From Rhynchobatus australiae (lineage: Eukaryota), in assembly GCA_034780895.1 (NCBI GenBank), contig JAUZTB010000042.1:10610975-10674974 (forward strand): a stretch of DNA of 64,000 bases, given 5' to 3'. Below, piece by piece: positions 16,321-56,514 of this stretch. Within the stretch, counting starts at the first letter, position 1; each line of letters begins with the position of its first letter. Under the pieces are notes generated by a model. It was not told where the DNA came from, did no database searches, and saw nothing but the letters and a program-made list of their open reading frames with translations. A program made the position numbers and the translations under genes.

Positions 16321-16744
16321 CAGCTCTTTTTCCCCTGCAATTTTTTTTCTTTCTCAAAGCAAGAAAGTGATCAATCTCTTAAAAAAAACTTAGCATTTGA
16401 TACAGATCCAACATTTCTGTTCATGCTGCATGTTTTTCAGATTATATCACGGTACATGAAGACCATTTATCTGGAGCTAGAGTGTCCCTGACATCAAGGT
16501 TACTTTCAAAGTCTGATGCAGTGTGTGTTTTTGAGTAGTGGAGTAAGTTTGCAAGCATTACAGAGTCAGAACATTGGTATTTAAGTGAAGATGGGTGCAG
16601 CAACTCAAAAACAGGACTGGAAAATTGTACTTGGATGAATGTGTTCTGGTTTTCTCCTGCAGTATTATTGTTATTATTGTCACGACATAGAAGATGGCCA
16701 TTTGGCCCATCAAGTCTGTGCCGGTTCCCAGATCAATCCCATTT

Positions 16745-16990
16745 AAAAAAAAATTTATTTACAGCGTGGTAACAGGCCCTTCCGGCCCAACGAGTCCACA
16801 CTGCCCATTTTAAACCTCAAATTAACCTACCCGTATGTCTTTGGAATGTGGGAGGGAACCGGAGCACCCGGAGGAAACCCATGCAGACACGGGAGAACGT
16901 ACAAACTCCTTACGGGCAGCGGCGGGAATCGAACCCGGGTTGCTGGCGCTGTAATAGCATTGTGCTAACCACTACGCTACGTGTTTCCCC
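16745..16990 (-). mobile_element. tRNA-derived HE1/V-type SINE (young), nested in an older SINE spanning about 16686-17070
   Basis: ggaatgtgggagggaaccggagcacccggaggaaaccc...gggaatcgaacccggg...gctaaccactacgctac. The flanks gaagatggccatttggcccatcaagtc and cccacttattttccctgtaacc match the older family at 12330. Confidence 0.9.
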
Positions 16991-19409
16991 ACTTATTTTC
17001 CCTGTAACCTCTACTCTCTTACGTGCCCATCAGCTCTACCCTAATTCTCCAACTGCCCACCTACACTCTGAGAGGAGGGGGAAAGGAAGACAGAAGTAAT
17101 TCTTGTGTCTGCAGTTGTTCATTGTTTCTTTTTTCCTGCCTGCCTTCTGCATTTTGCTTTTATTTATTAGCAATGGGTACGTTATCCAGGCTTCATAAAT
17201 GACCCACCTCAGACTTCACCGAACATGATGCAAACCTTCTTGAACCACTGTAGTGTTTGTATGGATGGTGCTCCCGTGACTAGAATAAATGGGACTNNNN
17301 NNNNNNAGGATTTTGATCCAGTAACAATAAAAGATCACCGGGATTGTGTGTAACTTGGAGCCGATTGTATTCTCGAGGTATTGTTATTCTTTCCCCTGGT
17401 TGAGATCTCAGAGCTGAGCTGACATGTGATATAAAGTAAGTTCTATTGATCTATTGCAGCTCTTACATATTCAACTGGCAAGCTCTTGTCAATCTTATTA
17501 TTTCCTAAAAGCAGATTTCGTTGTGGCATTTCTTAAGGAGGGGAACTAAATGTTAACACTTTGTATCTGGAGATTNNNNNNNNNNNNNNNNNNNNNNNNN
17601 NNNNNNNNNNNNNNNNNNNNNNNNNNNNNNNNNNNNNNNNNNNNNNNNNNNNNNNNNNNNNNNNNNNNNNNNNNNNNNNNNNNNNNNNNNNNNNNNNNNN
17701 NNNNNNNNNNNNNNNNNNNNNNNNNNNNNNNNNNNNNNNNNNNNNNNNNNNNNNNNNNNNNNNNNNNNNNNNNNNNNNNNNNNNNNNNNNNNNNNNNNNN
17801 NNNNNNNNNNNNNNNNNNNNNNNNNNNNNNNNNNNNNNNNTACAGTATATTCAAGGACTTTTCCCCAGTTATGTTGCCCACCAGATTAAACCCATTATAA
17901 ACAGATTGAAGTTTGCTGTCAGTGATGTTTGCCATTGTCAGCTGAAAATTTGATGCTTGGATGAAATAGTCTTCCTGCAGAGCATAACCTTGTTTGACTG
18001 TGGCCAGTAGCCATGTCACTGTGTCAGTTTGCTTCTTTTAGAAGCCGTTGCTATGTTTAGAAATTCTTCCATTTCTTAAAGTAACTCCTTTTAAATATTC
18101 CAGATATGTGATTTTCACATCCAGCAGCCACTTAACACCACACCACAATACTATGTCTGGAATTGGCAGTCTAGTGACTAGAGCTGAGATGGTGGATATT
18201 GTTGTTTCAATTTGCTACATCACCACTGATTCAACATTATTTAAAATGCATCTGTGCTTTGTATTGAGCACGTTTATCATTGGGCACAAATTGGGTTTGT
18301 CTCTATCTCAACAGCAAGCCACTTATTCTTCACTGTGGTAGCACATGTCAGTATCTCAGTGTTATGCTGTATAGGCTGCTGCTTAAGCTTGTATTGCTTT
18401 GGCAGTACTGAGGGAGAGTTACACTGATTGTGGTGCTGTCTTTTTGTTAAAGTACTATACAGAGGCTCCTTGCAGCCTATCACTGAACTATTTAAAAGGC
18501 ACCATAGTTATCCTGTGATCCTGGTCAGTACTTATCTTCCATCTAACCACAAAAATAAAGTGCTTACTTTGTTNNNNNNNNNNNNNNNNNNNNNNNNNNN
18601 NNNNNNNNNNNNNNNNNNNNNNNNNNNNTACATTGAGAATATCTTAACCTTTAAAGTTGTGTACTTTTAAAAAGCATACTGTCTGTGTTTAAACAACATG
18701 CATTTTGAAATGCTCTAACATTGGTTACTTTTGCAAGCTAGAGGTCACATGTTGAACTGGGGCAGTGCAGTGTGTGATTGAGAGAGCTGCCATTAGTTTT
18801 CTAACCCACAAACAGTCCTGCTCACTGGTCCAATGAGGCAATGCCCAGATTGCCAACAGCCTCATTCCTGGTGCCAGAGGCTTGACACCTGTTTCATTGT
18901 TAAGCTTACTCCAAGCCCAGAGGACTAGTACGCGCCTCACTATCAACTCCTAATATACTGTAAAAAGGTTGGGTGGTAATGAATAGGATATCAGCAGTCC
19001 CTTTTAACACTAAATTTAACACTAAATTTCTGTGTAAACAGAACCTCTTGCTACACTGCAGAAGTACTTTGTTGGTTACAAAGTTCTTCACAGTGTTCTG
19101 TGATGCACTTTATTAATGTGAGCCTTCATTTCATTTTGACAGTGCTTATACACGGTAAAGCAGCAGTTGTCATGCAAACTGGTTCACATTGCTCCAACGT
19201 GAGGAGGAACTCTTAGGTGTGGTGTATCACTGCCAGATTCAAGTGCTCCATTTGTGTCTGAAATCTGATGGGGAACAACACTGAACTTAAAAAATGAGAA
19301 GAGTGGAATGAAATTGGTAGAGATCTCTAGCTGCATAAAACCCACTTTCTTAATTCCACTCAGAACGTCACAACTGTCAGAGATTGGTGGTTTTTATCTC
19401 GTTTTTCAG

Positions 19410-19840
19410 CCTGGAGTTGTGCCTCAGCGATAGCATTCTTGCCTGTGAGTTGGAACATCATGTGATCAAATGATACTTCAGAGATTTGAGCGGATAATCC
19501 AGACTAATGCTCCAGTGCTGTAGTGAGGGAAGTGCTGCACTTTCAGAGGTGCTGTCCTTCAGATGATGTGTTAAACCAAGGATTCATCTGCCCTCTTGAA
19601 TGGATGTGAAAGATCCCACAGCACAAGTTGAAGAAGTGCATGGAATTGACCATGGTGTTGTACATAATATTTATCTCTCAACCGTCACTCAAAACAGATG
19701 ACCTAGTCGTTATCTCATTACCGTTTGGGTTGAGAGGACTTGCTGTGTATAATTTGACTCCTGAGTCATCCACATTACCACGGTGACCACAGCTTCTCAA
19801 TTACGGTTTGACTGTAAAACGCTTTGCGAGGTCCTGAGGA
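19410..19840 (+). mobile_element. Near full-length DeuSINE/SacSINE-like element
   Basis: Deu-domain-like core agaggtgctgtccttcagatgatgtgttaaaccaagg...ggatgtgaaagatcccacagcac...gaagaag...aatatttatctctcaacc, decayed tRNA head, and LINE-like tail aaaacgctttg...gtcctgagg. Confidence 0.72.
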
Positions 19841-20447
19841 AGACGCTTTGTCTTTTGAATTGTGGCCACCTCACACAAGTAAAAAGATGGTACGCTAACC
19901 CTTTGCACCTCCCAAAGAATGTTAGTGTATACAGATGATTAAAAGCCCGGATTTATTTAGTCACTCTATCTTTTCTGAATAAATATTGTAAGTTAATTAA
20001 GTTTGCAAATTAAATTGTTTCTCTATTTGAGAGCCGTACTTGAATCCAGATAGTCCCTTTGATCTATCAGCTTTCTGGTCTGCTCCACTTGTTAAATTGT
20101 TACAATTGTTGGGTTATGTCTTTTTCATTGCTCTTCCCCACTATTACAATGCTTCTACTGCTTGGAGTCAGTAATGACTGAGAATCTCACTCTGCAACAG
20201 GACAAGAACTTTATGTTGTTTCATGTCAGAAATTGTGTGTGCCATCTGTAAATGGAATTTATTTGTTGTTTTATAAAGCTTATTTTTACTCTATAATAAA
20301 ACTGAAGTAAAATAGCAAGTCATTCTTTGATTTTTTTTTGTTGCTTTTTTGGCCTAAATGTGTGGGTCAAAAAAGTGTGTTTAAACCTTTGTTTTTTCTC
20401 ACCCTCACATTTTTAATGAATTTTTTTTCTTCTCCCCCTCTTTTTAG

Positions 20448-20489
20448 GTCTCCCCATGCCACACACCATTCCCCGGCCAAAAGGGCAAG
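20448..20489 (+). CDS. ATXN7L1: Candidate 42-nt alternative cassette (micro)exon of ATXN7L1, phase 1/1, encoding (G)LPMPHTIPRPKGQ(E)
   Basis: Long polypyrimidine tract ttttttttcttctccccctctttttag, branch-like ccctcac at about 20402-20408, donor CAAG|gtaggt. Length is a multiple of 3, there is no stop codon, and the phase equals that of the 31317 acceptor. No transcript evidence. Confidence 0.6.
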
Positions 20490-21329
20490 GTAGGTGATGT
20501 GCTCCCAGGCCTTTGCCACTGCTGCTCTTGAACCAGTTACTGGGTGGTGTGTGAGAGCAGCCTTGAGCTGACTCATTCAGTAACTTTCAATTTCTCTCAC
20601 TCCCTCCCTCTGGGGGAATTCACCTGATTCCTGGCTACCTAGTTGTGGGAGGGGAGTTGCACATGCTTGCCTGTGTATGGGTTGGGGACATGTACATACT
20701 AATCCAGCACTGAGCTATTAATGATTAACTATGAGCTTTTAGTTGATGGGACACGCTTTTAGTGGGCAAATGAACTGTGCCATTTATTTCCTGACTGTTC
20801 CTTGCTCCTGCTTAGCTCCCCCATTGATATGTAGTCTTATTTTCCTTAAAATACATGGCTTGGGTACTTTGCCAAAGAATTGCCAAGGCTCTTTCAAAGA
20901 ACTAGTATAAGCACATTGAGACATATGACTCTTATCTGTTCTGTATCATTGTGTTTTTTTTAAATGTTGAACTTGCTCATATAAGGCAGTCAAATTTCTC
21001 CCCCTTTCCTTTCTCCACCCCCTCCCCTTCCCTCTCCCCCCAGCATTCTCATCTTCATCCCCACTTTTCCTGAAGGTCCATTGTCATGATTGGGCAACAT
21101 TTTCATTGGCTCCAGTGCATTCCTGGTTCCTTTTCCTGTTGGAGCCTGGAAACTAATTGCTGGCAAGTTATTTGTCCAAAGGTGGCCTAACAGTCCAGTC
21201 TTTGGTTCTTTATATAACATGCACAATAAGAGTACTGGTTATAAATTGGGAGCAAAAATTGCTGTCTTATCGCCTGCCTAATCTAAGAGATACTAAAGTT
21301 GATTGTAAAAGAAATAAAGAAATTGCTTG

Positions 21330-21700
21330 CATGTAGTGTTTTTAACAACTTCAAGATGTCCTGAAGTATTTTGTATCCAATGACATTAAAAGTATACAGT
21401 TATGAAGGGTAACAATATTATTTACATCACTCTCCCACAAACATCAAATAAATTGCTTTAAATGTTGAGGCACAAATATTGGCCAGTACCCTGAGGAGAG
21501 AAGGTTCTTGATCATCTTAGAATAACGCCATGGGATCTTTTGCGACCATTTGAGAGGCCAGCTGGCTCCTCTTTTTAATGTCTGACTTGGAGGATAGAGT
21601 GCTAACATTCTTGTAGCATTCAATGGCTGCCATTGGTGAAGTTAGCACATCCCTCACTGACTTGGGATTGAACCTGATAACGTTTGGCTTGTGCTGCTAA
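21330..21700 (-). mobile_element. Decayed DeuSINE/SacSINE-like element
   Basis: gttgaggcacaaatattggccagtacc...aataacgccatgggatcttttgcgaccatttgagagg...gggattgaacctg. Confidence 0.65.
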
Positions 21701-23088
21701 ATGCATTGACTTGTGAGTGCTTCAGAGACCCCCGGTGATCAGATTTCTTAAAAAGGGAGCACTGTGCTGCTAGGCTGCGGAAATACAGGTTTCATTTGAT
21801 TCTAACGCCTTTCAGGCTGCAAGTGCTTAATTTGTACCATTGATCCAAAAATAAAAATTCGAAGAACTCTTTTCCACAGGATATAAATGTGTCACTGTAT
21901 TTTGTGACTGTAGTTGTGCCAATAATAATTATAGAAAATCAGTGCACCAAGAAATGGAGTTCCCTGGAACAGCAAAACTGATTCAATCTTCAGTCTTCCG
22001 GAAATGTTAAATTCTGTTGAACAGTGTGCTAGTATCATAATCTCTATAAAATCACAGTATTTACCTGTGCTTGACCCATGACTGTATCTGCTTATACCAA
22101 CAGGACTAAATAGTTGTATTAGAAACATTTTTTTAAATTGCTTTTCCATGGCATTTTTCACCATCCTGACATGTTCCTCAATGTGTTACAACCACTGTTT
22201 TAAGGTAGAACCAAGTCTTAAACTGTTAATTTGAAATGGAATTTAAAAAAGTCACAACCTGCTTTTATCTCCAGGCTCCCCACTTCACAGTTGTGTAGAT
22301 TATTAAAGTATTTGTTATGGAATGGAAATGTTTGTCTTTTTTAGCTACTGATTGATAGTTAATAAATTTACACATTTCACACATTTTTTACCCATTAAGT
22401 GTCAACAGCTTTGCAGTGTTAAGTTGACTAACAAGTTTAGTTTAGTTGTGTTGNNNNNNNNNNNNNNNNNNNNNNNNNNNNNNNNNNNNNNNNATATGGT
22501 TTGTGGTAGTTGGGATTGAGTAGTTGAGAAGCTAGATCAGGTGATTCTGTCAGCTGTTTTTATTTCTCGTTCTGGTTTTCTTCATGATCACATAGTTCTT
22601 GGCCTGACAGCCTAACTTTATAACTCTGACCTCATTTCCAATCCATTTGAACCCTGGTACAAGTCTCGGTATTGAACGTGAGCAAATAAGCAGATGTGAG
22701 GAAAGCATTCTTTCCTTTTTGGCTCTTGGTGCATAATGTATTGGTTTGAGAAAAACTGAATTCCTTGCATGATGTCCCACGGACTCTCTGTTAGCAATTA
22801 AAATTATTTTCTTGTAATTCCTGGACTTAAAAGAGCAAATATAGTAGTAAACATGCTTTGTGAAACCTGCCATTCAGATCAAACAGTCTTTTACCAATGC
22901 AGCTTCTAAAAGTAAGCAATATAATTTGCTTATTTGTACTCTGATTTAAAGTTGTCTTACTTCTAATCCCATTGACAGTTAAAATAAAGTGATACATTTC
23001 TGTAAAAATGCATGAGGGAAGGCTTCTCATATGTGCTAACTAAATGAGCAAAGTGCAAGTGTTTGCTCTGTTTCCTGTGTGTTTGCAG

Positions 23089-23171
23089 CATTGTAAATGA
23101 AGCATGAGAATTTGCACTGGTTGCTGCGTGTTGGTGCTATTCTATCCAATGCATGAGTGTATCCCTGGTTG
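23089..23171 (+). other. Candidate alternative exon of ATXN7L1 (alternative 5' exon supplying MSVSLV-E, or poison cassette)
   Basis: Strong donor TTG|gtaagt at 23171/23172. ATG AGT GTA TCC CTG GTT G (23153-23171) is in phase 1 with the 31317 exon. Possible acceptor tttcctgtgtgtttgcag at 23088. Confidence 0.35.
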
Positions 23172-24279
23172 GTAAGTGTTAATGATATTGTATTTAAAAT
23201 CGTGAGGGTGTCCACTGGTCACAGCATTTTAATGATATTCTAATCATAGTGGGTTGGTTTCTGGTATCATCTTGTGCTAGTGATATTGTAATCTCAGCAG
23301 CTGCCAGAAATTTCCTACTGTGTTCATGATTTTCATAACTATTAATGCAAGATTTCCTCTGATCACTTTCTTGCTTGAGTTATAAATGTATTTATTTAGC
23401 ACACTTTTGCAGTTCCACTGGAAGTATTGTGCAATGTGAATCTCTTCCTCTGTATTCAGATCCTCTGTTGTGATTAAGTTTCCTTCCACACCACCAGCTA
23501 TGGCATATGGCTGTCTCTCATGAAGCAGACTCTCATATTTGGTGTGAAGTATGCAGGCTGCATATTTGGGGGCTATGCATAATCATAATTTGCTATGCCT
23601 AGCCCCAGGCTGAGCTAGCTTTCAAAGAGCAGAAGTGTTTATGGATGTCTCTGGCATACACAAATGCTTTAAAATAAAAGTTGAAAAAATATTTAATAAG
23701 TAAATACTATCAAATTTTCATAAAATGTTGAAGTACAATATATTAAAACACTTCAAAAACTCCAGAAAATATTAAATTTAAATTAACAGTTCAATCGGAA
23801 ATATGTATTCCTTCTTGCTCACAGCTAGTCCTCTCAATTCAAATAAGTGGGTTCTCCGTTCCTGTGCCTTGTCTAAGCTGATGTAGGTTTGTAGATATGA
23901 AGCATAAGTGCTGGAAAACTGCAGGCATTTATGCACTGTCACTATAAACTCTGAGGAGTCTAACGCCACAGGATAATCAGGAAACCCTCACAATCATGTA
24001 TGGAAATTTAGGACTCTTGTGTTTATCCAGAGTTATAAATTTGGTTTCAGGGCTCTGTAAAAATGTCAGCATTCCCATGCAATGCTACCAGTATTTCTGT
24101 AGAATATTCAGACCATCACTGTACAAGATGCTGACTCTGCAGCCACCTCATTGAATATTTACTTAGTGCACAAGTACAGTTCTGTATATTCAGTCCTATA
24201 ATTCGGAATACGTACATCATTCATTTGCAGTTCCTAGTAGACGGGCACGATTGTTTTTTGTAGAATAGTTCAAGAATAT

Positions 24280-25250
24280 TTCAAGAATGTGAACAGAATA
24301 CAAGCAGGTCCCTCCAACCTGCTCTGCCATTCAGCAAGGTTGTAGCTGATCTGACCTCAACTCCATTTTCCTGCCTGTTTCCCAACACCCTTGATTTTCC
24401 AATAAAACATGTCTGTCTTGACTTAGAACATAGTAAGTGATTCAGCCTTCCTGGGTGAGGGAATTCCAAAGGTACACAAACTTCTGAGAGAAGAGATTCC
24501 TCTTCATTTCTCACCTAAGTGGGTGTCCCTTATTATGAGGTTCTACAATCCCCCATCAGGGGAAAGGTCCTCTCAGCATGATCCTTGTCAAGCCCCCTCA
24601 GGACCTTGGGGTTTCAATAAGATTGCCTCTCCTTTTTGAATATAGGCCCATTTTACTTGACCTTCACCCACATAATCCCTTCAGCCCAGTAACCAGTCCA
24701 GTGAACCCTGTCTGAATTGCCTCCATTGCAGGTATAGAGACTAAACTGTACTCAATGTTGTAAATTTGGTCTCATTAAAGTCCTCTACAATTTTAAAAAT
24801 GGTTGTGCTCCATCCCTCTTGCAATCATAATCAGCATTCCATTTGCCTTCTTAATTACCTGTGTCTGCATTGCTAACTTTCCGTGTATCATGTACAATGA
24901 CACCTAGATTACTGCACAGTCATATCCTTTAATCTCTTTCCATTTAAACTTCCATACTTCCTACTAAAATATGGAAGTTTACATACTTCGGTAGGAAGAA
25001 TGGAAAAGTTCTGCTTTTCCATATTTCCTACTAAAGTGGATAACCTCTTATTTCTCCACATTTTACTTCATCTGCCTGATTGTGGTCCATTCGCTCAACC
25101 TACCTATATCCTTTGTGGTCCCTGTGCATTCTCCTCACAACTTGTTTTCCAGCCCTGCCTGACATTGTACCATCAGCAAGTTCAGCTACGACACAGTAGG
25201 TCCCTTGATCTAAGTTACAAAATCAATTTAAAAAAAATAGTTGTGGCTCC
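24280..25250 (-). mobile_element. Decayed CR1 LINE 3' portion
   Basis: cctgctctgccattcagcaagg...gctgatctgacctcaactcca...gggaattccaaagg...gaagagattcctcttcatttc. Confidence 0.75.
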
Positions 25251-25259
25251 AGCCTTGTA

Positions 25260-25900
25260 GATCTGAAGATTGCCAGTGAGGCCAATCAAGGATTAGCATG
25301 CTCTGTTGCCATTTCGGCATTCATTTCCAGCTGTGATAGCATAAGCTTGTGTTGTTGATCCGGTCCACAACACAAGCTTCCTGTCAATTTTACTTTCCAT
25401 TTGCTGTCACTGCTGTGTAGTTTTAGCTCAGAGTTCCTTGAAATGGGTTCTCACTGAGTGATAAACTCGTATGATTTGGTGGTAATGTTGAGTTCTTCAT
25501 GTTTGTCTTGAAGACATCTTTGAAATGCTTCTTCTGCTTTTCTGTTGAAATGTCTGCCAGGACTGAAACCAGAGAAGCAGATTTGCTTTGGGATCTGGAG
25601 CTCTGTCAATATGACGTGCCAAGCCCTGTGAAGATGATTGTAGCATTGTCATGTTGATGTATTTGCCAAGGTATATGGTAAAATGTGATTATTTGCTTAA
25701 GACTTGAGATCCTCTGCCAGAAAGCTCCCAATTAGCAGCCTCCAGCTGTGGTAATTCAGGTTTGTGTGGAATCCCTGGAGAGCACTAAGCACCTCCCACA
25801 GCTCGGAAGACATCTCTCACAAATGACTGGCGTTGACTAAGAAACCAACCCATGTGTGCAAATGCTTCTGCTGGTTGCTTGAGGAAACTGGATTTTGATC
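25260..25900 (-). mobile_element. Decayed RTE-like LINE fragment
   Basis: agtgaggccaatc...ttgaagacatctttgaaatgcttcttctgc...gagcactaagcacctcccacagc parallels 14400-14900. Confidence 0.45.
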
Positions 25901-25944
25901 ACAGTGTTAGATTCAGAACCAAGCTTGTGGTTCATCATGGAGTC

Positions 25945-26830
25945 AAAGAAAATTTACAACATGTAAGGAGGCCAGTTGGCCATTTTGTTTGTGCTGGTTG
26001 TAAAGGAGTTAATTTAACCATCCAGTATTTGGCCTTTAACCATGCATGTTATGGCTCTTCCAAATGCTTCATAAATTTGATGAATACTTCTGCCTCTTCT
26101 ATCATGTCAGACAGTGAATGATCTCAGTGAATGACCTTTTCATCTCCTGTATATCAATTACTGTAAATCTATTCCTGCTGGTTTTCTTCCCCTCTGCTTA
26201 GTTTTTTCTATTTATTCAATTTAAGCAATTTATAATTTTTTTGGTTCAATTTTTTGTCAGCCCCCTCTGTTCCAAAGGAGAGGACCTTGGCTCTCCTCAT
26301 AGATACATTTCTCCAGTCCTATTTAGAACTTTGTAAACTTCCTTTGCACCTTCTACAGTCTTTCCTGTAATGTAATGACGAGAACAGTATGGTATGCAGT
26401 ATTGAAGCGGTGCCTAACTAGAGTTGTGTGTAGTTCTAACAGAACCTCCTTGCTTACTTGCTGTTTCCTGACCAATAAAGGAAACCTTCCTTCTGCCTTT
26501 TCAATCACCTTATTAACCTGCCCTGCTGTCTTTAAGGATCTATGAATGTACAGTACAGGGTCCCTTTGTTCCTCCACATAACTCAATATCCTGCCACTTA
26601 TTGTATATTCAATAACTTTGTGCTTCCCCAGATGCATTATTTCACTTCTCTAGATTAAATACCAATGTTCATTTTCTTACACAACTGACCAGACCATTTA
26701 TATCTTCCTATTGTCCAAAGCATTTCTTCTTACAGCCAAAGAAATGATTAATTTTTTTTATCCACTGCACATTTCTTTATCATTATCCCAACTATTCAAG
26801 TCCAACTTATATAATACAAAAAGAATAAAG
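25945..26830 (-). mobile_element. Decayed CR1 LINE (ORF2 3' region)
   Basis: ORF 26353-26637(-) MHLGKHK...YTISGRILSYVEEQRD.VL.IHRSLKTAGQVNKVIEKA...ELHTTLVR is the CR1 post-RT segment. Confidence 0.8.
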
Positions 26831-28169
26831 GACTGACCTGTGTTTATTCAGATATATGGTCCTCTCCCTATTCTGCAGAATTCGGATATGGACAGTGCGC
26901 TGGAGATGCTTTAAGGCACTGGAGAAGTATCAGCAGTGCTATCTGTGGAAGATCTAAAATGTGCATAGATAACATAAGTATCCTCCCCGAAGTGTACATT
27001 GAAGCATAATATGCCTTAGATGTTTTATGTAGCCATACAATACATTGCATACCATTTTAAATTGTGCTTTTTTAAATGCTGTTTCTATTTACTTCTGCTC
27101 CTTTCTCATCATCTACTGATAAATTAAGCATGTGCTTGAACAGTTTGGTGTTTCACAATTTTACATTGAATACTTTCATCTTGAGAATGTTTAAACTACG
27201 AAATATCCTTTACTAGTGGGGAGGCTCCAGGAACCCTCTCAGAGTACACTTCCTGGTTCAGTGGTAGCATTCTTGTGGGTTCACCTTTCAGTCCAAATGC
27301 TTGAGCATGTTTTCAATACAGTTCTTGCTCTGTAGTTTCTGTATTCTGCATGCATTTTATTATGCACCTGACATTTATTACATGCTGTCCTTTTAATCTT
27401 TTAGCTATTTAAGGAGAACTAACTTTGGATGCCCCTTTCCCTTTCATTGCAATATGCCCACGTGTTTCCAACTTATTTTCGCTCACTTCGCAGTTAACCT
27501 GCCAATTTTTGTTTTCACTCTACTTATGTCAGACCTCTAGTCACCTGACTGAAATCAACCCACTTCCAGTGGAATATCGTCACTTTTGAACATTCCAGAC
27601 ATTTCCCATTACCATTCTAGGTCAAATATTATTGTGACCACTTTTTCCAAAATGTTCTCTCACTGAAGTGTTTTACTCTTGCGCTCCTCATTCACCATAT
27701 ATCTGTTGTCTAAATTGTTGAGAGCACTTCTCACCCATCAGAAGTCAAAATGTCAAAGATGCAAAAGGGAGCCATGCCATTCTGGTAGCTTGCTAACCGG
27801 TGGTTTAAATTTTTAAAGCACTGATATGTGGAAACGACTGTCACCAGCAATTAACTTATAATTATTACATGGTGTTCCTGTTAACGGCAGCTAGGCATTG
27901 TTGTATTCAAATGACAGCTCAGCCTAAACATAAGCTTCACCGTAGCTGTGGAATAATAGGTTTTCAGTTGCATGGTACAATGTTTCTGTTGCTACAAAAC
28001 AGCATTGGTATAAGCTGCTGTGAGCTGTGTTATGTAGACCTGTTAAAACATTCGAACTACGAGGTATGTGTGTTTAAATTTACGTTATATGTCAGCTTAA
28101 TTCTGAAATATCTTCTATTTAAGTGGTAGTATCAAGAGTTTTTAGTGGGACAGTACTGGAAGCAGGGTG

Positions 28170-28630
28170 GACAAGGAAATTCCATCACTGATTCTTTGAC
28201 ATCAGCAAATAAAAAAGTGGCCTGCTTGATGGGTATCCCATCTATCACTAAACATTCATTCCTTCTACCATTAGCAGCATACACCATCAACAAAATGCAC
28301 TGCAGTTTCTAGACTGGGCTGCTCTCGACCGCACCTCCCAAACCAGCGACTTTCACCAATAAGAAGGATAAGGGCAACAGGTGCATTTGTACATCACCAC
28401 CTACTGGTTCCCTTCCAAGTTGCACGCCATCCTGATTTGGAAATATATTGCCATACTTTCATTGTCACTCAGTCCAAATCTGGATACTCCCTCCACAACA
28501 GCAATGTGGAGTACCTTCCCCAGAAGTATTGCAGTGGTTCAGTAAACAGCTTGTCATCACCTTCTCAAGGGTAATTAGGGATGGGCAATAAATGCGGGCC
28601 TTGCTTGTGATACCCGTGTCCTGAAAATCG
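28170..28630 (+). mobile_element. LINE 3' end (elasmobranch CR1/L2-type family)
   Basis: acattcattccttctacca...aaaatgcactgcag...cacctcccaaacc...tgcagtggttcag...caccttctcaagggtaattagggatgggcaataaatgc. The same tail occurs in reverse at about 17160 and 58200. Confidence 0.75.
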
Positions 28631-29309
28631 ATAAATTTTAAAAAAAATCGTGATAACCTGCAAAGCACCTTTAGTGTGCTAAAATGTTGCAGTGCACTTC
28701 ACAGGGGCATAATCATTTAGAAATTGATATGAAGTGAAGAATGGATGTATTGTAAGGGATGGATGTGAGGTGCAGAGGCAGGGATTTAAAGAAAAAATTC
28801 CAGAAGTTTGGCACAGAATGCATGACTGCCCATAGTGGAAGGAGGAAAAGGGACTTGGGCAAAACTGTAGCAGAGTTGTTCTTGGCAGAGTCCACAAAAG
28901 GAATTGAACCCAAGGATAAGAATTTTTAAATTAAGCCCATGAAGGAACCGTAGTGGTCAACAAGCTGAGGGATGATTGTGAGCAAAATCTGTTTTGACAC
29001 AGGACTGATCACTTGAGCATTTATTGGTTATGATCCTTCTGCAGTATCCTGTTGTTCTGCAACAGACATTATGTACAATAGTAGGAGTAAATGAGTGGAC
29101 ACTAAGGGGGGTGGGTGGGACACTGGGGAAGGGCATAAATTCTTCAGTGGCATTCATCACATTTAAAGCAGTCAAGAAACTGTTTAATAAGGGCAGGATT
29201 GTTACAGATGGGAAAGTTTTTTCCATTTTCCCTGACGTCCTTAATGTTCAAAAATTCATTGATATACTGAACAACTAAGTGCCATTATGGGGTTTGATGG
29301 GATTGGTGA

Positions 29310-29630
29310 GCAGGACAGGCAGCTTTGTTGGAGTTGAGAAAAATATGAGAAGGATTTGGAGGAAGTTAGCAGATTTGGGAACAACAATAGAGCAGTTTGG
29401 GGTGGTTGGAAACAGCTGAAGGGAGGTTTGAAAACAATTAGAGGAAGTTTAAGGTGTGCTGGGAAAAGTTGGAGGAAGGATCCAAGTTTAGGAATAGTTG
29501 GAGGAAGCTTTGGGAAAAGTATTGTAGTTTGGTGGTTAAAATATTAAGGGAGGAACCTTGGGGTGTTCACAATGGGAAGGAAGTTTGTCAGTGAAGATAA
29601 GGTTTGGTAGCAATACTGTGGATTGGTTAG
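29310..29630 (+). repeat. G/A-rich degenerate low-complexity tract
   Basis: Recurrent gtttgg/ggaag/tgggaaaagt units with very few C. Confidence 0.5.
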
Positions 29631-30309
29631 GAACATTTAAGTGGCTTTTAGCTCTACAAGCATTTGAAAATTGATGGTGGGTCCATGAATTGGGTTGAGA
29701 GAGCAATGGCATTGCATTGAAGGATTTGGCTTAATTAAAAAATGCCTCCCAGGTGTAATAGCTATGGAAATGGATTCTGGAATTGTGAGGGAGGAAATGC
29801 CACAGGCTAGGATAATTCTGGGTGATAACATTTGAAGTTATTATATTGTAGGATTGACACGTTGATGTTTCTAGCACAGTGTGTCAAATAGTTACATTAT
29901 AGGAAATGTTAAAGAAAAGTAAAAGCTGCGAACCTCCTCCCACCTCTATTCCTTTTTCTGGACAAGTATTCCAAAGGTATTTTACCAGCACCTTGCCATG
30001 CAGTCTGTTTGATTGTTCAGAGCACTTGTGCGGTAATTGTTCCCTTCATATAGTAAGCAAAACACTTGAGTTTTCGTTTGATTTTACTCTTGGTCTCTAG
30101 GGGAGTAAAAATGAAAAGCCCATTCCTGGAACAGTAACAGGGCCTTCGCTGCAGGAGGTCTCCTGGCAGTGGGGGTGACAGAAACATATTCTCTTCAGAA
30201 TGGGGAGAGCGGCAAGTAGGAAGGAGAGGTGAACATGGCCCCCACAAGCAATAAGGCAGGAAGCAGTATTTCAACTAGTTTTTGAATTCAAAGAGAGAAA
30301 TTCAGAAAT

Positions 30310-30700
30310 TCACATCACATCTTTCATAGACTCAGAAATTCTCAACACGCTTTGGATTGAAAACATATTTCATTGAATGTAGTCAACTGGAAAATGTTAC
30401 TACCAATTTGTACACAGCAAGTTCCCAAAAGCAGAAACAAAGTACAGGCCATATAATCTGTTCTTAGCAAGGCTATTTGAGAAGTACACAGGTGTCAGAA
30501 GATGTTCTATGTATACCTGAGAGAACTCTCAGTTTAACATCTCATCTGAAAGATAGCACAGCAAACTGCACCTTCCTTCAGTGTCGTATAAGTGTCAGGC
30601 CAGATAGTGTCAGGTGAGTTCAGATATCTGGAAAGAGTCTTGATTTTCAGACTTCTCATTCAGTGGCAAAAGTGTGTGACCACCAAGCCAACTGACACCT
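30310..30700 (-). mobile_element. Decayed DeuSINE/SacSINE-like element
   Basis: accaatttgtacacagcaagttccca...cagtttaacatctcatctgaaagatagcac...tgaccaccaagccaactgacacc. Confidence 0.65.
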
Positions 30701-30914
30701 AATATGCAAGTGAAGCTAATAAGAACTACTGGGTGGCCTTGACCTTTCAACCTGAAAGTTCCACTTAGAAATGCTGACTTTTACAAATCTAACTGGGTTG
30801 AAGTTCATCACTCCCTAACAAAGGTGGAAATTCAGAACTACTGCTCAGCTGATTGTCAGTAACAGGACGAATGTAATATTTCATGCACGGCTCCCTACAG
30901 TTTAATCAGCCTGT

Positions 30915-31015
30915 AATGTTAACTATGTTTCTCTCCCCGCAGATGCGGCCTGACCTGCTATTTCCAGCATTTTCTGATTATATTTTAGATTTCCAGCATC
31001 TGCAGTTTTTTTATT
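30915..31015 (+). mobile_element. Penelope-like terminal repeat remnant about 300 bp upstream of the 31317 exon
   Basis: aatgttaactatgtttctctccccgcagatgcggcctgacctgctatttccagcattttctg...gatttccagcatctgcag. Confidence 0.72.
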
Positions 31016-31316
31016 TTAATAATTCATGCATAGAGCCCATAGTGAAATGCCAATTGTTAATAATACCATCATACTTTATAATCCTACGCCCATAGGACCA
31101 AACAACTCATTTAGTCATGAGTATGCAGAATGTCTCATCCACAAGAACAACCCATATATTTTTTTCAATAAAAGTGTGGAAAATTGAGTCTACAATTTTT
31201 GTACCTCAGTGCATTTGCTTTTGATTTGTTGACACTGTCAAGTTTTACAGAAAAATTAAATGAAACATTTATGCAGTTGTGTCATTCAGTCTATTCACTG
31301 TTCTCTATATTTTCAG

Positions 31317-31539
31317 AAAGAAGACATGGTTCTTCATGTAAGGCGACCCTCTCACCAGCTTCATCAACCTCCAATTCCACAACGTCACCAATCCCAATGA
31401 AATCCAAAGCCTGCAGTAGCCATACCACAATTGGTAGCAACTCCAAGCCATTCAAGCCACCAAAAGACAATCTACATACCTCCAATAATAAGCAGCACCA
31501 GGCAGTCTTTCCTTCCAAAGTAACAAGAGAGAAATCATG
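31317..31539 (+). CDS. ATXN7L1: ATXN7L1 internal coding exon, 223 nt, phase 1 to phase 2; encodes (E)RRHGSSCKATLSPASSTSNSTTSPIPMKSKACSSHTTIGSNSKPFKPPKDNLHTSNNKQHQAVFPSKVTREKS(C)
   Basis: Acceptor ttctctatattttcag|AA at 31316/31317 and donor TG|gtgagt at 31539/31540. The translation resembles the vertebrate ATXN7L1 segment ERRHG...SKPFKxPKDNL...KQH.VFP.K..R.K.C that follows the first zinc finger (recalled, not searched). Its end phase matches the next exon (TG+T = Cys). Confidence 0.93.
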
Positions 31540-34500
31540 GTGAGTACTTATAGTTTGATTACATTTATCAGGATGGTCTTTTGGTTATTGCTTTTAAAAA
31601 GGAGATCATTAAAATTATATTTCTCAATTTTGTTCACCTAAGGTATAATGGATTTTTCAGAGCACTCTTAACAGTTTTACTATTAGTTTGAAACCATCCT
31701 CAGTAATTTGTTGAAATGCTGAACGAGCAAGTGCAGTTTGAATCTGTTATGAATCACATAGTAGCTTGATTTAAAAAAAAGCTTTGTGAATAGGCTGTCC
31801 TTAAGCTGAAGAAATGATGCTTAAATTGACTCTATTTACATAAGTTCATAAAGATTTTTTTTATTGCAAAAGGAAAGTTAATCTATTTTTCCATAATTGC
31901 CTTTCTTTCACTTATATTTCCTGTTGCTAATTTGGAAGTGCAATGTACTGGAACATCTACTGAAAAAATCTGTCTTTGATGGAACTAAGTTTCTAGTTTT
32001 CATGAGATTAATTTGTTTAGAAGGGGAAATGGGCCAGTGTTGCTAATATTCAGAAGGTCTGTTTCTAAAGTACTTCAGAAACCCAGAACAGACTTGCCTA
32101 CCTTGAAATCCCTGTTATGCCAGCAAACTTAAAAAAAAGTGCTCCTCTTTATGTTGTGAGCAAGCCTGCAGCTCATCGTGGTGTGACAAAACCAACTTCC
32201 GAGTGTATTCGTGAAAGCCGCTTTAATATATTACCCTCTCCTCTGTTTTCCTAGTCTTACTTCAGAAGCTAACTCCATTTCTGGCTCTACAGAATCAGCT
32301 GCCCTTCAATTTCTCATCTGAGAACAATGTTTCACCTGTGAGGCTAGATAATGAGTATTGGCAGATGATCTGTAAGGAAAATTATCCAACAGAAGTCCCT
32401 GAATTGCAAAGCATCTTATCGTTGAAATGAATTACAGTTGCAATGTCATCAGTCCAGTATAAATAAGTACAACTCAGGCCTGCAGATTTCTTGGTTGTAA
32501 GGTCATCATAATGATTTTATTAACTCTACCACCTGCAATTAAAGTATTTTGCTAATTGAAGTGAACCCTTTTGCATCAATGCTTTTTTCCAAACAAGGAA
32601 TGGATACTGTTTTCCAGTCTATTTTGTCATGGTTTACTTTCATTAGTCGTTCATTGTTACCTCTGCGGGACATTGAGGCAGGAGAGTTCTTGTGGAATGC
32701 ACAACTGGAAACTTGAAAAAATTGGCCATCCAGCCTTGTAATTTGTTTTGGAAATGAAGGCGAATGTTGTCTGTGCTGCTGAGATATTTTTGTTCACAAT
32801 TCTGTAACACCAGATATAGTTCTGGCACTGATGCCTGCACAACATTTGCTGTGCAATCTATAAGTGTGGCAGTGTCATGTATTGTCATGGTTTGAAAATA
32901 CTGACTAAGTGAAATACTAAAATCAGGGGCACAGTAGGGCCGTGGTTAAGTTACTGGCCAGCAGTGGGTAATTTCTGCATCATTGATCCAGACACAGGTT
33001 CAAATCCCACTCTGATAACCTGGAATTTAAGTTGTGTTAAATAAATCTGGAATTTTAAATGTTACTGTCAGTATTGGAAACTCATCTCGTTCACTCATGC
33101 CCTTTCCCAATATGGTATATTATGACCTCAGACCTGCCNNNNNNNNNNCTTAACTCCCTCTGCCGAGGATTAGACTATAAATTCTGATATTCTATTGATA
33201 ACCATGTCTTATGATAAAGTGAATAAAATTGTTTTTTTCCATTTAAATTATTTGGGAATAAATACCTTTTTTTATGTATGTTTTTATTTGGGAATAATTT
33301 ATAAGTTAGGAGCTTTATTAAGCCATTTAGCTCTTAAAGCACATTCTAGTGTTCAGATCAGGATTGAACTGTATCCTAATTCTATTTAAGCACATTGGTT
33401 CGATAAGCTTAATTTAGTCATTAAGTCTATAAATCTTTGTTTCAGTTATGAAATCTTGAAATAAGTTAGCTCAGTTTTGGGAGAAGGGTTCTGAATTTCC
33501 ATCGCCTTTGCAGGGAGGGTGGGGGGAGGGGGGAATGGTTCCTGAATCCATCCCAAAATAGCACAGCTTTTTAGTCTCTCTTATCCTCATGTTCTCAGCT
33601 TCCCAACCTAGAGGACAAGAAACACTCTCAGCTGTGCCATTTTGCAGTGTTATCTTGAGGGACAATAATGTGCAAGGCTTTGAGTAATAAGGCTGATTAA
33701 TTAGATTGCTCTGTGAGGAACTAGCATTGGCTTGATGGACCAAGTGGCTTGCTTTTGTGCTGTAATAATTCTATGACCTTATTGAATCTCATAATCATCT
33801 ACCATTAGATTACCCCTCAATCTTCGATACTAGAGGAAATTCATTGATATTACAGAAAGAGTCTGATAATTGGCTATGTGATTGTTTGGAAATCCGTTTC
33901 GCATGCTCCCTTTGAACTCACTAGGGCTCTGTTTCCAATGGTCTCTTTAAACTCTTCTGGTTTGTTGGAAAATTTATTCTACTGTGTAACACCTTAAAGC
34001 AAAAAGTGTATTAAATGTGTGTAGGAGTATCAGTAGGGATAACATCCAATAGTCCAGAAAATCTGGCCAGTCCAGTACCACAAATCTTGAGGATGTAGGA
34101 TTATTGTTTTACTGTAGTTGTGGACAAATTATTGAAGCAAGTATTGTGATAACTAAAAATATGGGGAGACAAAACCAGACTATAGATGCAGAAATCTTAC
34201 AAGGTCAACAGAAGTGTGTATTTCTATTGTTAAATATCTGATTCAGTTTTTTTTTAAGTTCCAAAATAGCCTTCAGTGAAATGAACTTCTCAGTCATAAA
34301 CTCGGTAACTGAACATCCATCACCCTCTGAACAGAGAATGCCAAAGATTCATAACTTTGTGATTGAAACTCATCCCAGTCCTAAATGGCTGATATTGTGA
34401 TCCTTGGTGTCAACCAGCCCTCAGGAATTCTGTACATTTCAGTAAAGTCACCTTTCATTCTTTAACATGCAGAATAGAGATACATTCTCCTCAGTATGAA

Positions 34501-36909
34501 CTGAAGGAATCAATCCAACAAACCTTCATTGCAGCCTCAACTGCGGCTCCAAGCACAGTCTCACAAAATTCTATGTAATTGCAGCAAGATTTCCTTATTT
34601 CTTTTTTCCAAACTACTTGCAAAAATAACTGGTGTTTGATTTTCCTTTCTGTTTGCTGAACCTACATGTTAATTTTCTTTAACTAATGTCCAAGGGGCTT
34701 CAAATCCCTCTGTATACCGTGATTTACTAGTCCATCCCCTTTTTTATGAAAACAAGTATGCTTTGCTGTTCATCCAACCAAAGTAGACATGTTTGTATTT
34801 CCCCAGATGATAATTCCACTTGCTACCATTTTGCATAACTTGTCCCAATCCCTTCTTATTATTTATAAGATTCCCAGTTTAAATCTGCCATGAATTCTGT
34901 CCTTTGCTGTTTAACTTCAACATTCCAATGAAACCAGTGCATTTCTGGTTTCAAATTCAAATTACAGTGAGGCCAGTTTGAACCTGGTTTAAGATTGAAA
35001 TTACAATGACGCTGGATCATTTCCATTTTGAAATAGAAGAACTAGAATGGTACTTGCCATCATGTGCAATATTATTTACATGCCACTAAAGACCTGGAAA
35101 AGATTTTGTTTATTTCATATAAGAGATTCAAAGGCAGGTAAAGCTATTGAAGGATACAACTGAATGGCTTTGAAGTTAGGTTGATTTNNNNNNNNNNNNN
35201 NNNNNNNNNNNNNNNNNNNNNNNNNNNNNNNNNNNNNNNNNNNNNNNNNNNNNNNNNNNNNNNNNNNNNNNNNNNNNNNNNNNNNNNNNNNNNNNNNNNN
35301 NNNNNNNNNNNNNNNNNNNNNNNNNNNNNNNNNNNNNNNNNNNNNNNNNNNNNNNNNNNNNNNNNNNNNNNNNNNNNNNNNNNNNNNNNNNNNNNNNNNN
35401 NNNNNNNNNNNNNNNNNNNNNNNNNNNNNNNNNNNNNNNNNNNNNNNNNNNNNNNNNNGTAAAACAGGATTAGTGTAAATGGATGCTTGATGGTTGGTGC
35501 ACGGTCAGGCCGAAAGGTCTGTCTTTACATTGTATGATTCTGATTTTATGAAATTGAATCTTATTACAGCACAGGTATCTCCAGAGAGAGAGCAGCTCAT
35601 GAAGTGACAGCAGCTGTCCTATTTATCATTTATTCCTCATGACTGCTGAGGTTTCAACATGTATTCATATGCAGTCATCATGATCTTGTCAAATACAATC
35701 CACAGTATATATGGGATGAAAGTTAGCAAACTAAGAATGCTTCCACTGTTAGCAGATAAGGAATATGAATAGGTCAATAAATGTAATTTTCTTACTGGGT
35801 TCTATTATGGTTAAACACACTCCTGCAGCAAGATGGTGAATTGTCAGGCTTACTTACAGCTGCCATAAGTATGCTTTTGTGATTCCAGTCGGGTCTTTAT
35901 ACAGTAGGCTCATTTTTCCAGTTTTTTATTGACCCTAGCCTTGTTTGAGCTTGAGCCAGCAAAGCTCATAACATTTGGAGATCAGAATCAAATTCATACC
36001 CACCTCTTGCTCATCAAGGTAATGAATGCCTTACCTCTAGACAAAGTGCTCTAAATGATTGGTTAAATACCATTTGCCACTGGAATATTCATTGAATTCA
36101 GGACCTGTCTAAAACCCTGAGGACCTAAACAGTATACCAACTCATTGTCGTTGATTTTGTTTAATCGGTTTGTTAACATTTTACATTAATGTTTTGATGC
36201 TTCCTTTGATAATCTTCTGGGTATGCACTGACTGTTACAGACTCATGAAGAGCTCTATAATGCATTGACCTTCTCTAAATCTGTTCAATGCTCCGCATGT
36301 TTTCTAGATTGACAGAGAATCTCAATTTATGTCTATTCCATGAGAGAGGAGCAAGTAAAACATGATGTGGGGAAACAGTGAAAAAAATTCTTTTTCTGTC
36401 TTTCACTTTACATGAAGAAAATCATAATTTCTCTTTATTTTTTAAAGGTGTATCATCCTCTTTGTTCCCTTGTGGTCTCACTAGAACATGCTTCTCCTTC
36501 TGCTGCGGTCATAAGGAAGGATAGGTGAGCTGGTCCAACATCTCCACCTATACCATTCTTCAACTGGCTGTTCACAAGCATTGATAGCAGCCTATTGGCA
36601 ACTCCATCACTTTTTTTCTTTCAATCCACCCAACACTTATAGTGGGCTGTTTGGCTTCTACTTGATGCTTTGGCACAGCAGCACAACTGAGATTTGGAAG
36701 TCCAAAATATGGACAAAATTACCCTGCATTATCATGATATAGAATTACCAAGAAACTGTTACACATTCGACCCAATCAATCTGTGTTTGTACTGTACATA
36801 AGCAATAATAATCCCATATACTCACCTTGTTCTCATGTCTCTATATTCTCTCCTTCAACCAATTCTTTAACCAATGCTTAAATGTTGACGGGGTCTGTTT
36901 CAGTCACTG

Positions 36910-40628: not shown

Positions 40629-40662
40629 CTGGAGGAGAACTAATATACAATGGGAATAATAA

Positions 40663-40905
40663 GGGCGGCACGGTAGTGTAGCGGTTAGCGTTACACTATT
40701 ACAGCGCCAGCGATCAGGGTTCGATTCCCGACACTGTCTGTAAGGAGTTTGTACGTTCTCCCATGTCTGTGTGGTCTTCCTCCGGGTGCTCCGGTTTCCT
40801 CCCATGTTCCAAAGACATACGGGTAGGTTAACGTGGGTTTAAAAAAAAATGGGTGGCATGGACTCGTTGGGCCAGAAGGGCCTGTTACCAAGCTGTAAAT
40901 AAAAA
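40663..40905 (+). mobile_element. tRNA-derived HE1/V-type SINE (young) with Pol III A and B boxes
   Basis: A box TAGTGTAGCGG 40674-40684, B box GGTTCGATTCC 40718-40728, V-domain ccgggtgctccggtttcctccca, CR1-type tail gggccagaagggcctgtt. Confidence 0.92.
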
Positions 40906-41024
40906 ATTTTAAATTCAAATAATTTAAAAAAAATTTAAGGAATTCAAAATGTTCCACCCATGTTGCCTGTACTCTGAACCGAGGTCACCTGAACCTCAGT
41001 AGCTGAGCTGCAGTATGAAGGTGA

Positions 41025-52759: not shown

Positions 52760-54165
52760 AATGTTCAAGAAAGGGTTTAAGAAAGTTCCATCTCATTCAA
52801 GGCCAGTCAGTTTAGCATCAGTGATAGGTAAGGTTTTAGTAATAATCAGGGAAAAAATACAGGCATTTNNNNNNNNNNNNNNNNNNCTAATTGAATTTTC
52901 TGATCAAGTAATGAGAGGTATGTGGTTGTTTTTCAGACTGGGGAGTAGGAGACAGTGGTCTTTCTTGAGGGTCGGTACTGGGACCATTGCTTTTTTTTGA
53001 TTAAATATAAATGACCTAGACATTGGAATAAAGAGTAAAAATTCATAAGTTCTCCATGATGCCAAACTTGGAGTTGTGGCATTCAGTGGGGATGATCCCA
53101 CTTGACTGTGGCAGGACTTGTGCAAGCAGATTGGGCAGACAGTGGTCAGATGGAATTTATTGCAGAGAAGCAGAGGGACGGGGGGAGAAAAAAAGTCGAT
53201 GACAGTTCTAAAGAGTGTGCTACAACTGAGGGATGTGAGGGTTCATTTGAATGTATCTTTGAAGTTGATAGCCATGTTGAGAGAGTGTTAGCAAAATATT
53301 TGGGATCGTGGGCTTTATAAGTTGAAGTAAATTGTGTACAGAAGCAGGGAGGTTTTGTCAAACCTTTGTCAAACTCTGGTAAAGCTGCAGCTGGGGCATT
53401 GTGTCCATTTCTGGTCACCACAGTTTGGTGGATGTGCTGGTCATTGAGAACAAGAGTTGAGCTAACAGAATGGTTCCAGGGATGAGGGATTTTACTACAA
53501 GGGTACGTTGGAAAAACTGTGGTTGTTCTCCTTGAATTAAAGGAGGCTGAAGGGAAGTTTTATACACGTGTGCAACATTATGACAGGTTTAGAAATTTCA
53601 GCGTTATGACAGGGTGGCACAGTAGCATAGTGGTTAGCGCAACGCTATTACAGCACCAGCGACCTGGGTTCAATTCCTGCCGCTGTCTGTAAGGAGTTTA
53701 TACGTTCTCCCGTGTCTGTGTGGGTTTCCTCCGGGTGCTCCGGTTTCCCCCCACATTCCAAAGATGTACGGGTAGGTTAATATGGGTTTTAAAATGGGCG
53801 GTGCGGACTCGTTGGGCCGGAAGGACCTGTTACCACACTGTAAATAATTTTTTTTAAATTTAAAATTTAGAAATGCTGCTTCTATTAGCTGATGCTACAA
53901 TGACAAGGGGTTGTATATTTAAGGTCCAGGGCAAGAGACACAGCATTGTGAGGAAGAACTTTTTTTTAGAAATCTACAATTTGCTGCCTATGAGGATGGT
54001 AGAAACCGAGAATTTTAAAAAAAATTTAAGAAGTAGAAAATGAGAAAGAAATTGAATAGGCATTGGAGAGAAATAAACTGGCAGGGTTGGGGGACAGAAC
54101 AGGGAATGGGACCGAGTGCCAGCATGAATTTGATGGGCCCAATAACGTCATCTGTACTGAAGTAA
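52760..54165 (+). mobile_element. Decayed CR1 LINE (RT to 3' end) with a nested young SINE
   Basis: FKKG...SRPVSLASVIGKVL..IIREKI...LIEFSDQV, then INDLD..KF..DAKLG remnants, and 3' tail agcatgaatttgatgggccc. Confidence 0.78.
53612..53850 (+). mobile_element. tRNA-derived HE1/V-type SINE (young) with intact Pol III boxes
   Basis: A box TAGCATAGTGG 53623-53633, B box GGTTCAATTCC 53667-53677, V-domain, CR1-type tail; flanked by TTTAGAAAT direct repeats (53588 and 53866). Confidence 0.92.
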
Positions 54166-56221: not shown

Positions 56222-56514
56222 TGTTCCTGTCCCAGTAGTCAGCCTTGAGAAGATCCCGAACCTGGTGAAAACAGATGGTGCCAATGTTAAAATGAGTTCC
56301 ACCACTGCTACCACCTCGACCACCTCTTCTTCCTCTTCATCCTCCACATCTTCTGCAAGTTTGGTTAAGTCTGGTTTGACATCAACAACATCAAAGTCTG
56401 TGCCACCTTCACCTGAGAAGATTTTGAATGGGAAAGCAATAGTACCACCTGTGATAGACAAGAAACATCAGAATGGTACTAAAAGCAGTAACAAGTCTCA
56501 CAAAAGACTTTCTG
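56222..56514 (+). CDS. ATXN7L1: ATXN7L1 internal coding exon, 293 nt, phase 2 to phase 1; encodes VPVPVVSLEKIPNLVKTDGANVKMSSTTATTSTTSSSSSSSTSSASLVKSGLTSTTSKSVPPSPEKILNGKAIVPPVIDKKHQNGTKSSNKSHKRLS, just upstream of the SCA7 domain exon
   Basis: Acceptor gtttttcttgcag|T at 56221/56222 and donor TCTG|gtgagc at 56514/56515. The motifs VPVPVVSLEKIPNLVK.DGANVKM, SKSVPPSPEKILNGK and IDKKHQNGTK are characteristic of ATXN7L1. It is in frame with the upstream exon. Confidence 0.95.

Follow-up and report, generated by a model that had tools for sequence, protein, structure and literature searches.

Introduction

ATXN7, ATXN7L1 and ATXN7L2 are regarded as interchangeable adaptors. The zinc finger of yeast Sgf73 and human ATXN7 carries the domain name ZnF-Sgf73 (PMC13631227, accessible text). 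According to a review (PMC7863924), removal of the finger from yeast Sgf73 causes the protein to dissociate, and activity is lost entirely. Excerpts of a second source (PMC8080568) give a minimal yeast module that contains Sgf73 1-104 and describe a metazoan module that is reportedly stable without Atxn7 while H2Bub falls; the excerpted text of PMC2657900 contains no finger mutants. Human ATXN7L1 binds the zf-UBP domain of USP22 through an FLGxPWxxW motif (residues 36-57) with a Kd of 0.1 uM, according to the accessible text of PMC13376213, and ATXN7(3-151) went into a human module that proved active in assays (bioRxiv 10.1101/2021.05.13.444038). On the 892-aa numbering this construct stops between the two Cys and is apparently without most of the finger, with the proviso that construct numbering may differ. 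A review excerpt (PMC10676324) describes the ATXN7 paralogues as barely characterized.

Two known splicing systems are close to the exon described here. Rodent ATXN7L1 isoform 2 (146 aa; NP_082415.2, AT7L1_MOUSE; cluster P0181) leaves the finger before its last His, at the very junction used by the shark exon, and like the shark included form it retains the USP22 motif. However, isoform 2 ends in a terminal exon and has neither the SCA7 domain nor the SAGA-core segment, whereas the shark exon keeps the protein at full length, and the rodent tail and the shark exon are unrelated in sequence. Rodent-like tails also occur in sheep and in one tortoise model. The second system is that of the SRRM3/4 neural microexons. 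In the portion consulted of bioRxiv 10.1101/2024.09.17.613571, the SRRM3/4 library holds microexons of 6-27 nt with 42-nt exons as constitutive controls, and a UGC lies between branch point and AG in 74-79% of the microexons. The shark exon resembles these in being short, in-frame and conserved, in having a strong pyrimidine tract and donor and in remodeling an interaction domain, but differs in its 42 nt and in lacking a UGC near the acceptor.

The same exon, peptide and junctions that we describe are found in RefSeq ATXN7L1 isoforms of elasmobranchs, among them XP_051885908.1 (Pristis pectinata X1) and XP_067855933.1 (Heptranchias perlo X1). Unlike the present analysis, these are automated models without functional comment. 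Here we examine the exon in a 64-kb stretch of Rhynchobatus australiae DNA (the window), together with its use, its conservation and its predicted effect on the zinc finger.

Results

A 42-nt frame-preserving exon in ATXN7L1

A sequence-only reading of the window had proposed a hidden 42-nt cassette exon in ATXN7L1 that interrupts the N-terminal zinc finger. The features that bear on this proposal are given below in window coordinates; exon numbers are nominal, from junctions seen between isoforms.

20405-20409 and 20413-20417, plus strand: candidate branch-point pentamers read from sequence, the former being that of the sequence-only reading
20421-20445, plus strand: pure pyrimidine run of 25 nt in the sequence (20421..20447 including the AG)
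20446-20447, plus strand: AG acceptor dinucleotide, read from sequence
20448..20489, plus strand: cassette exon encoding GLPMPHTIPRPKGQ (42 nt, 14 aa), from sequence, RNA reads and isoform models
20456..20458, plus strand: in-frame ATG inside the 42-nt exon, its context weak, with a C both at -3 and at +4
20490-20495, plus strand: donor GTAGGT, which RNA reads connect to 31317
20500..20526, plus strand: YGCY cluster (four motifs, none more than 37 nt past the donor), a candidate MBNL-type element
31317..31539, plus strand: downstream exon, nominal exon 4, 223 nt, opening with ERRHG, in matching phase
56222..56514, plus strand: next ATXN7L1 coding exon, beginning VPVPVVSLEKIPNL, from sequence

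On re-reading the sequence, the coordinates, AG, 42-nt length, GTAGGT donor and stop-free frame, phase 1 at both ends (20448-20489, plus strand), were as proposed. The claimed 27-nt pyrimidine run is present, but its pure part measures 25 nt and it reaches 27 only when the AG is counted. Both candidate pentamers match yUnAy, the branch-point consensus, and the second lies 32 nt 5' of the exon. We also applied an exon-like filter to the window (strong pyrimidine tract, YAG, donor matching at least 6 of 7 consensus positions, 9-60 nt, a multiple of 3, stop-free): one segment passed on the plus strand, 20448-20489, and none on the minus strand. The thresholds were chosen knowing the exon, so this uniqueness is descriptive.

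The best protein match of the flanking exon is P. pectinata ATXN7L1 (97% identity), followed by other rays and sharks at 85-92% and by amphibians or gar at 59-66%, an order that would most probably place the source among rays close to the sawfishes. All of its named matches are ATXN7L1 and the remainder are hypothetical proteins, which identifies the gene as an ATXN7L1 orthologue; a Pfam search of this exon returned no match. The upstream zinc-finger exon lies beyond the 64-kb window.

The stretch from the branch candidates to the AG is free of UGC, a usual but not obligatory mark of SRRM3/4 microexons; the nearest upstream TGC is at 20342, 106 nt away. At 42 nt the exon also exceeds the 27-nt limit of that class. 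These sequence features set it apart from typical SRRM3/4 neural microexons. The 300 nt after the donor contain 8 YGCY motifs where 3.55 would be expected (uncorrected p 0.03; nine motifs were tested), and the cluster at 20500..20526, a candidate MBNL-type element, weakly hints at MBNL regulation. A single ACTAAT, presumably a QKI-type motif, stands at 20698-20703, 209 nt past the donor, with 0.12 expected per 300 nt.

Several other elements of the window were recorded. Between exons 4 and 5 a second AG..GT segment (36448-36524, plus strand, 77 nt) shifts the frame and, when read in the main frame, runs into a stop (TAG, 36482-36484), which gives it the look of a poison exon. Its other-frame peptide appears in Amblyraja and two Mobula models, with the ATG at the very end of exon 4 as its start. 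An interspersed repeat of about 250 nt is present in four copies, 77-89% alike and in both orientations (2690-2936, 16741-17002, 40652-40930 and 53611-53873). A near-identical 82-nt pair (1778-1859 and 1960-2041) flanks a 100-N gap and is probably an assembly overlap.

The exon is spliced to exon 4 in RNA

Three raw RNA runs (X21, X22 and X23; 18-24% of each) and the contig set X17 were aligned to 17900-32500 at 88% likeness; these derive from related organisms and are not established as R. australiae. The sequence-only reading had pointed to reads joining 20489 to 31317 as a check, and such reads exist: the GT..AG junction is crossed by six reads in two of the three runs, two in X21 (two starts) and four in X23 (two starts), and by one X17 contig of 2728 nt (depth 18.2). 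In all six reads the first mate is on the minus strand, as expected of plus-strand RNA. X22 gave no junction read at a depth of 1 at 31336. The summed depth at that position over the three runs is about 21, which suggests that inclusion is substantial, though these figures are not a PSI. The contig aligns 40 letters on the side of the 42-nt exon and has 235 nt preceding exon 4, the exon upstream being outside the window, and protein records (isoform models and a Logan-encoded form) join HC directly to the insert. The cassette exon is real and used, 20489 being spliced to 31317.

Service mainly as an alternative first exon was considered and rejected: the reads and contig cover 35-42 letters here, and most records join the exon to upstream coding exons. 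Repeat remnants at 30959-31012 and about 28550-28605 attract most of the aligned RNA reads, which come from elsewhere in the transcriptome; these remnants are not ATXN7L1 exons.

Included and skipped forms across sharks and rays

Among the records listed, 107 are from elasmobranchs (103 named, from 20 species, and 4 Logan). The junction is not spanned in 19; the other 88 include the insert in 59 cases and skip it in 29. The 14-aa peptide is present in RefSeq-type isoform models of at least 18 of the 20 species, and both forms in at least 11 of the 20, these being annotation records and not reads of this genome; Cetorhinus and Rhincodon are represented by fragments only among the listed records. 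With at most 15 members covered per cluster, a missing skipped form carries no weight, nor do numbers of records measure expression. RefSeq isoform models are built on aligned RNA. Since public models already contain the peptide, the exon is part of automated annotation and the description of it as hidden does not hold.

Over 15 aligned sequences, mean pairwise identity is 0.99 for the insert, 1.00 for the finger exon and 0.88 for the next exon, and the sole substitution among the inserts is Pro-to-Ala in Pristiophorus. The full 830-aa spliced form, insert included, is encoded by a 2927-nt Logan contig (P0081).

The 35-aa finger exon, which lies outside the window, is itself skipped whole and in frame in shark, ray, gar and frog models (P0002, P0010, P0013, P0014, P0026, P0031, P0039 and P0161). 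Judged from these sequences, such skipping is a putative second way of removing the same zinc finger.

The zinc finger with and without the insert

In the skipped form the finger reads C-x2-C-x11-H-x4-H and aligns with C150, C153, H165 and H170 of human ATXN7; H-x4-H spacing is shared by 66 of the 68 family representatives of at least 300 aa that show the finger. The fourth ligand position is the His of ERRHG in exon 31317..31539. The insert GLPMPHTIPRPKGQ, with four prolines and one His, is placed between HC and ERRHG and starts one residue past the first His, that is, between the two histidines of the finger. The spacing becomes H-x18-H, or H-x6-H to the insert's own His. Protein matches, RNA, alignment and model thus agree with the sequence-only reading on gene, exon, frame, peptide and placement within the N-terminal zinc finger.

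Modeling the finger with and without the insert had likewise been proposed, and we did so with AlphaFold on the Heptranchias isoform pair, in models that contain no zinc or partners. In the skipped form residues 91-120 have pLDDT values of 74/83/78 and form two strands and a helix (106-117) that carries both His, and in the included form the finger falls to 37/34/30 and the helix is absent. Overall quality is low in both models (mean pLDDT 39 and 36), neither of which recovers even the SCA7 domain, and 40 of the 56 rows in the included-form alignment are gapped at the insert, a gap that may itself depress confidence. Read with these limits, the pair supports a predicted unfolding of the finger by the insert. 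The skipped isoform has the ZnF-Sgf73 hallmarks (C-x2-C-x11-H-x4-H, two strands and a helix) and so shares the finger of yeast Sgf73 and human ATXN7, whereas in the included isoform the motif is interrupted and H-x4-H on one helix is lost.

No Pfam model exceeded the cut-off on the zinc finger, and fold searches with the skipped model gave no Foldseek match at E<=0.001 and no VIA match at Z>=5. The highest-ranked Foldseek row, at E 0.0014 and 77% identity, is ATXN7 from the human SAGA core, which fits a SAGA-anchoring segment left untouched by the exon. Weak Foldseek and VIA rows were zinc fingers and Sgf73/Sgf11, with Sgf73 chains of DUB structures at Foldseek E 0.4-6; we do not use them as proof.

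The same junction outside elasmobranchs

Our non-elasmobranch set comprises 171 records, partly drawn from the best 120 of 674 matches. The canonical +5 His is present in 153 and absent in 8, and in 10 the finger is missing. Six of the 153 are Xenopus laevis isoforms (P0025, P0171-P0174 and P0176) in which a 36-aa insert, found on both gene copies, supplies the His at the canonical H-x4-H position. This insert resembles a LINE reverse-transcriptase motif, a putative likeness for which Pfam and Atlas searches gave no support. Sporadic inserts unrelated to the shark exon, 28-37 aa long, are found at the junction in koala, Saccopteryx and armadillo as well as X. laevis.

The core M-x-H-x-x-P-R was found in one of the 171 records, an alligator-gar model (P0022) with a 9-aa insert; nine Lepisosteus records examined have no insert of this type. 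Its local score against the shark exon is 25, a value attained 143 times in 200000 random window peptides and 68 times in 30000 pyrimidine-rich ones, and the X. laevis, koala and bat inserts, with scores of 15, 15, 8 and 17, were rejected as homologues. The gar score suggests homology with the shark exon, from a single model, and a homology-guided predictor could pick a gar-like match from a long intron; that the gar insert is a true homologue we consider possible but on balance doubtful. No tetrapod record among those retrieved carries the 14-aa peptide, and among the matches listed chimaera and human ATXN7L1 are unrepresented, while none of the named teleost records has an insert. Nor was a like insert present in the ATXN7, ATXN7L2-like or invertebrate representatives retrieved. 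The conservation in bony vertebrates for which the sequence-only reading had suggested looking comes down, among the listed records, to the one gar model, and by sequence the exon seems limited to elasmobranchs.

Discussion

The sequence-only reading had held that the finger anchors the DUB module and that the exon could remodel or disable its coupling. The placement of the exon within the finger was right. However, ATXN7L1 also docks USP22 through FLGxPWxxW (PMC13376213), a motif that is present upstream of the finger in full-length shark isoforms and is unaffected by the exon, and in the portion consulted of bioRxiv 10.1101/2021.05.13.444038 the module with ATXN7(3-151) is active, which leaves "disable" unsupported. 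With this upstream motif left in place, "retunes" describes the inferred effect better than "disables" does.

Our favored reading, held with modest confidence and partly on predicted structures, is that a full-length adaptor bearing the insert would dock USP22 and SAGA without a folded finger and so retune the DUB module. The frame-preserving, alternatively spliced exon, common to sharks and rays, places 14 residues between the two histidines; its four prolines are predicted to break the ligand helix, the fourth ligand would shift from H-x4-H to H-x18-H, and the finger would unfold. The included adaptor would likely still bind USP22 and SAGA but support the H2B deubiquitinase module less tightly. 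Because the upstream USP22 motif and the downstream SAGA-core segment both remain, we infer that inclusion would act as a splicing switch tuning module activity or stability, and in-frame skipping of the finger exon in the same species would have an equal outcome.

Several points sit poorly with this reading: the ATXN7(3-151) module is active, the metazoan module is reportedly stable without Atxn7, a mere disruptor would not need a near-invariant sequence (99%), and 38 of the 59 listed records that contain the insert are without the finger exon directly upstream. In the listed elasmobranch records the insert is preceded by 12 different six-residue upstream ends; it is joined to exon 2 in 11 records and to other 5' exons in 14, and in 13 of the 107 records the exon ATG (20456..20458) is the first Met. 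These facts suit a peptide that is functional in itself, either as a proline-rich basic short motif or, through its own ATG, as the N-terminus of finger-less isoforms from internal promoters, with damage to the finger incidental and the finger perhaps dispensable in the vertebrate module. Insert conservation that equals that of the finger exon and exceeds that of the next exon agrees with this, as does the activity reported for the ATXN7(3-151) module in the extract cited above. However, the peptide has no known partner, the ATG context is weak, and records that begin at its Met may stem from truncated models or contigs. Short alternative exons often owe their conservation to splicing signals alone, and the same may hold here. 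We regard a function of the peptide itself as fairly unlikely.

Less probable again, and in our view unlikely, is that the insert's own His replaces the displaced fourth ligand at H-x6-H and rebuilds the finger with a new C-terminal surface. That His is invariant in 15 of 15 aligned sequences, the gar insert retains M-x-H-x-x-P-R (H-x5-H), the unrelated-looking X. laevis insert also brings a His to the ligand position, and of 2645 YAG sites across the window with a stop-free continuation just 2 lead into a GL-x(1-3)-H start, this exon being one. Yet x6 spacing with two prolines falls outside the family pattern, the included AlphaFold model has no helix, the pattern was noticed post hoc and in gar rests on one model, and the koala, bat and armadillo inserts are without it. 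An extension of the idea, to which we give slightly less credence still, is an ancient switch that would predate the split of cartilaginous and bony fishes, swap the fourth zinc ligand and set H2B-ubiquitin turnover by tissue, and that would now persist unchanged in sharks and rays and as a vestige in gar, with other splicing events at the same junction taking its place elsewhere.

The exon might also be tolerated at a low level without serving any selected function, comparable to the sporadic 28-37 aa inserts by which several lineages show that this junction accepts new exons. This would agree with the lack of junction reads in one of three runs (X22), but is very improbable given a fixed length and frame, a near-identical peptide across sharks and rays, and six reads over the junction where the three runs together reach a depth of about 21, with X22 at a depth of 1.

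The reach of these findings is limited: the exon is seemingly confined to elasmobranchs and already in automated annotation, and short exons that split domains are a known theme. We found no published description of it in titles and abstract openings, a search weighted towards openly available papers, and supplementary splicing tables could list it; the cassette exon is lineage-specific, strongly conserved and annotated, yet apparently undescribed. The included and skipped forms offer a natural isoform pair for asking what the finger does in vertebrates, where published hints conflict. Taken together, the conserved exon that cuts the finger, the skipping of the finger exon in sharks, gar and frogs, and the rodent isoform suggest that this junction of ATXN7L1 is a point at which splicing has repeatedly come to control the SAGA DUB module.
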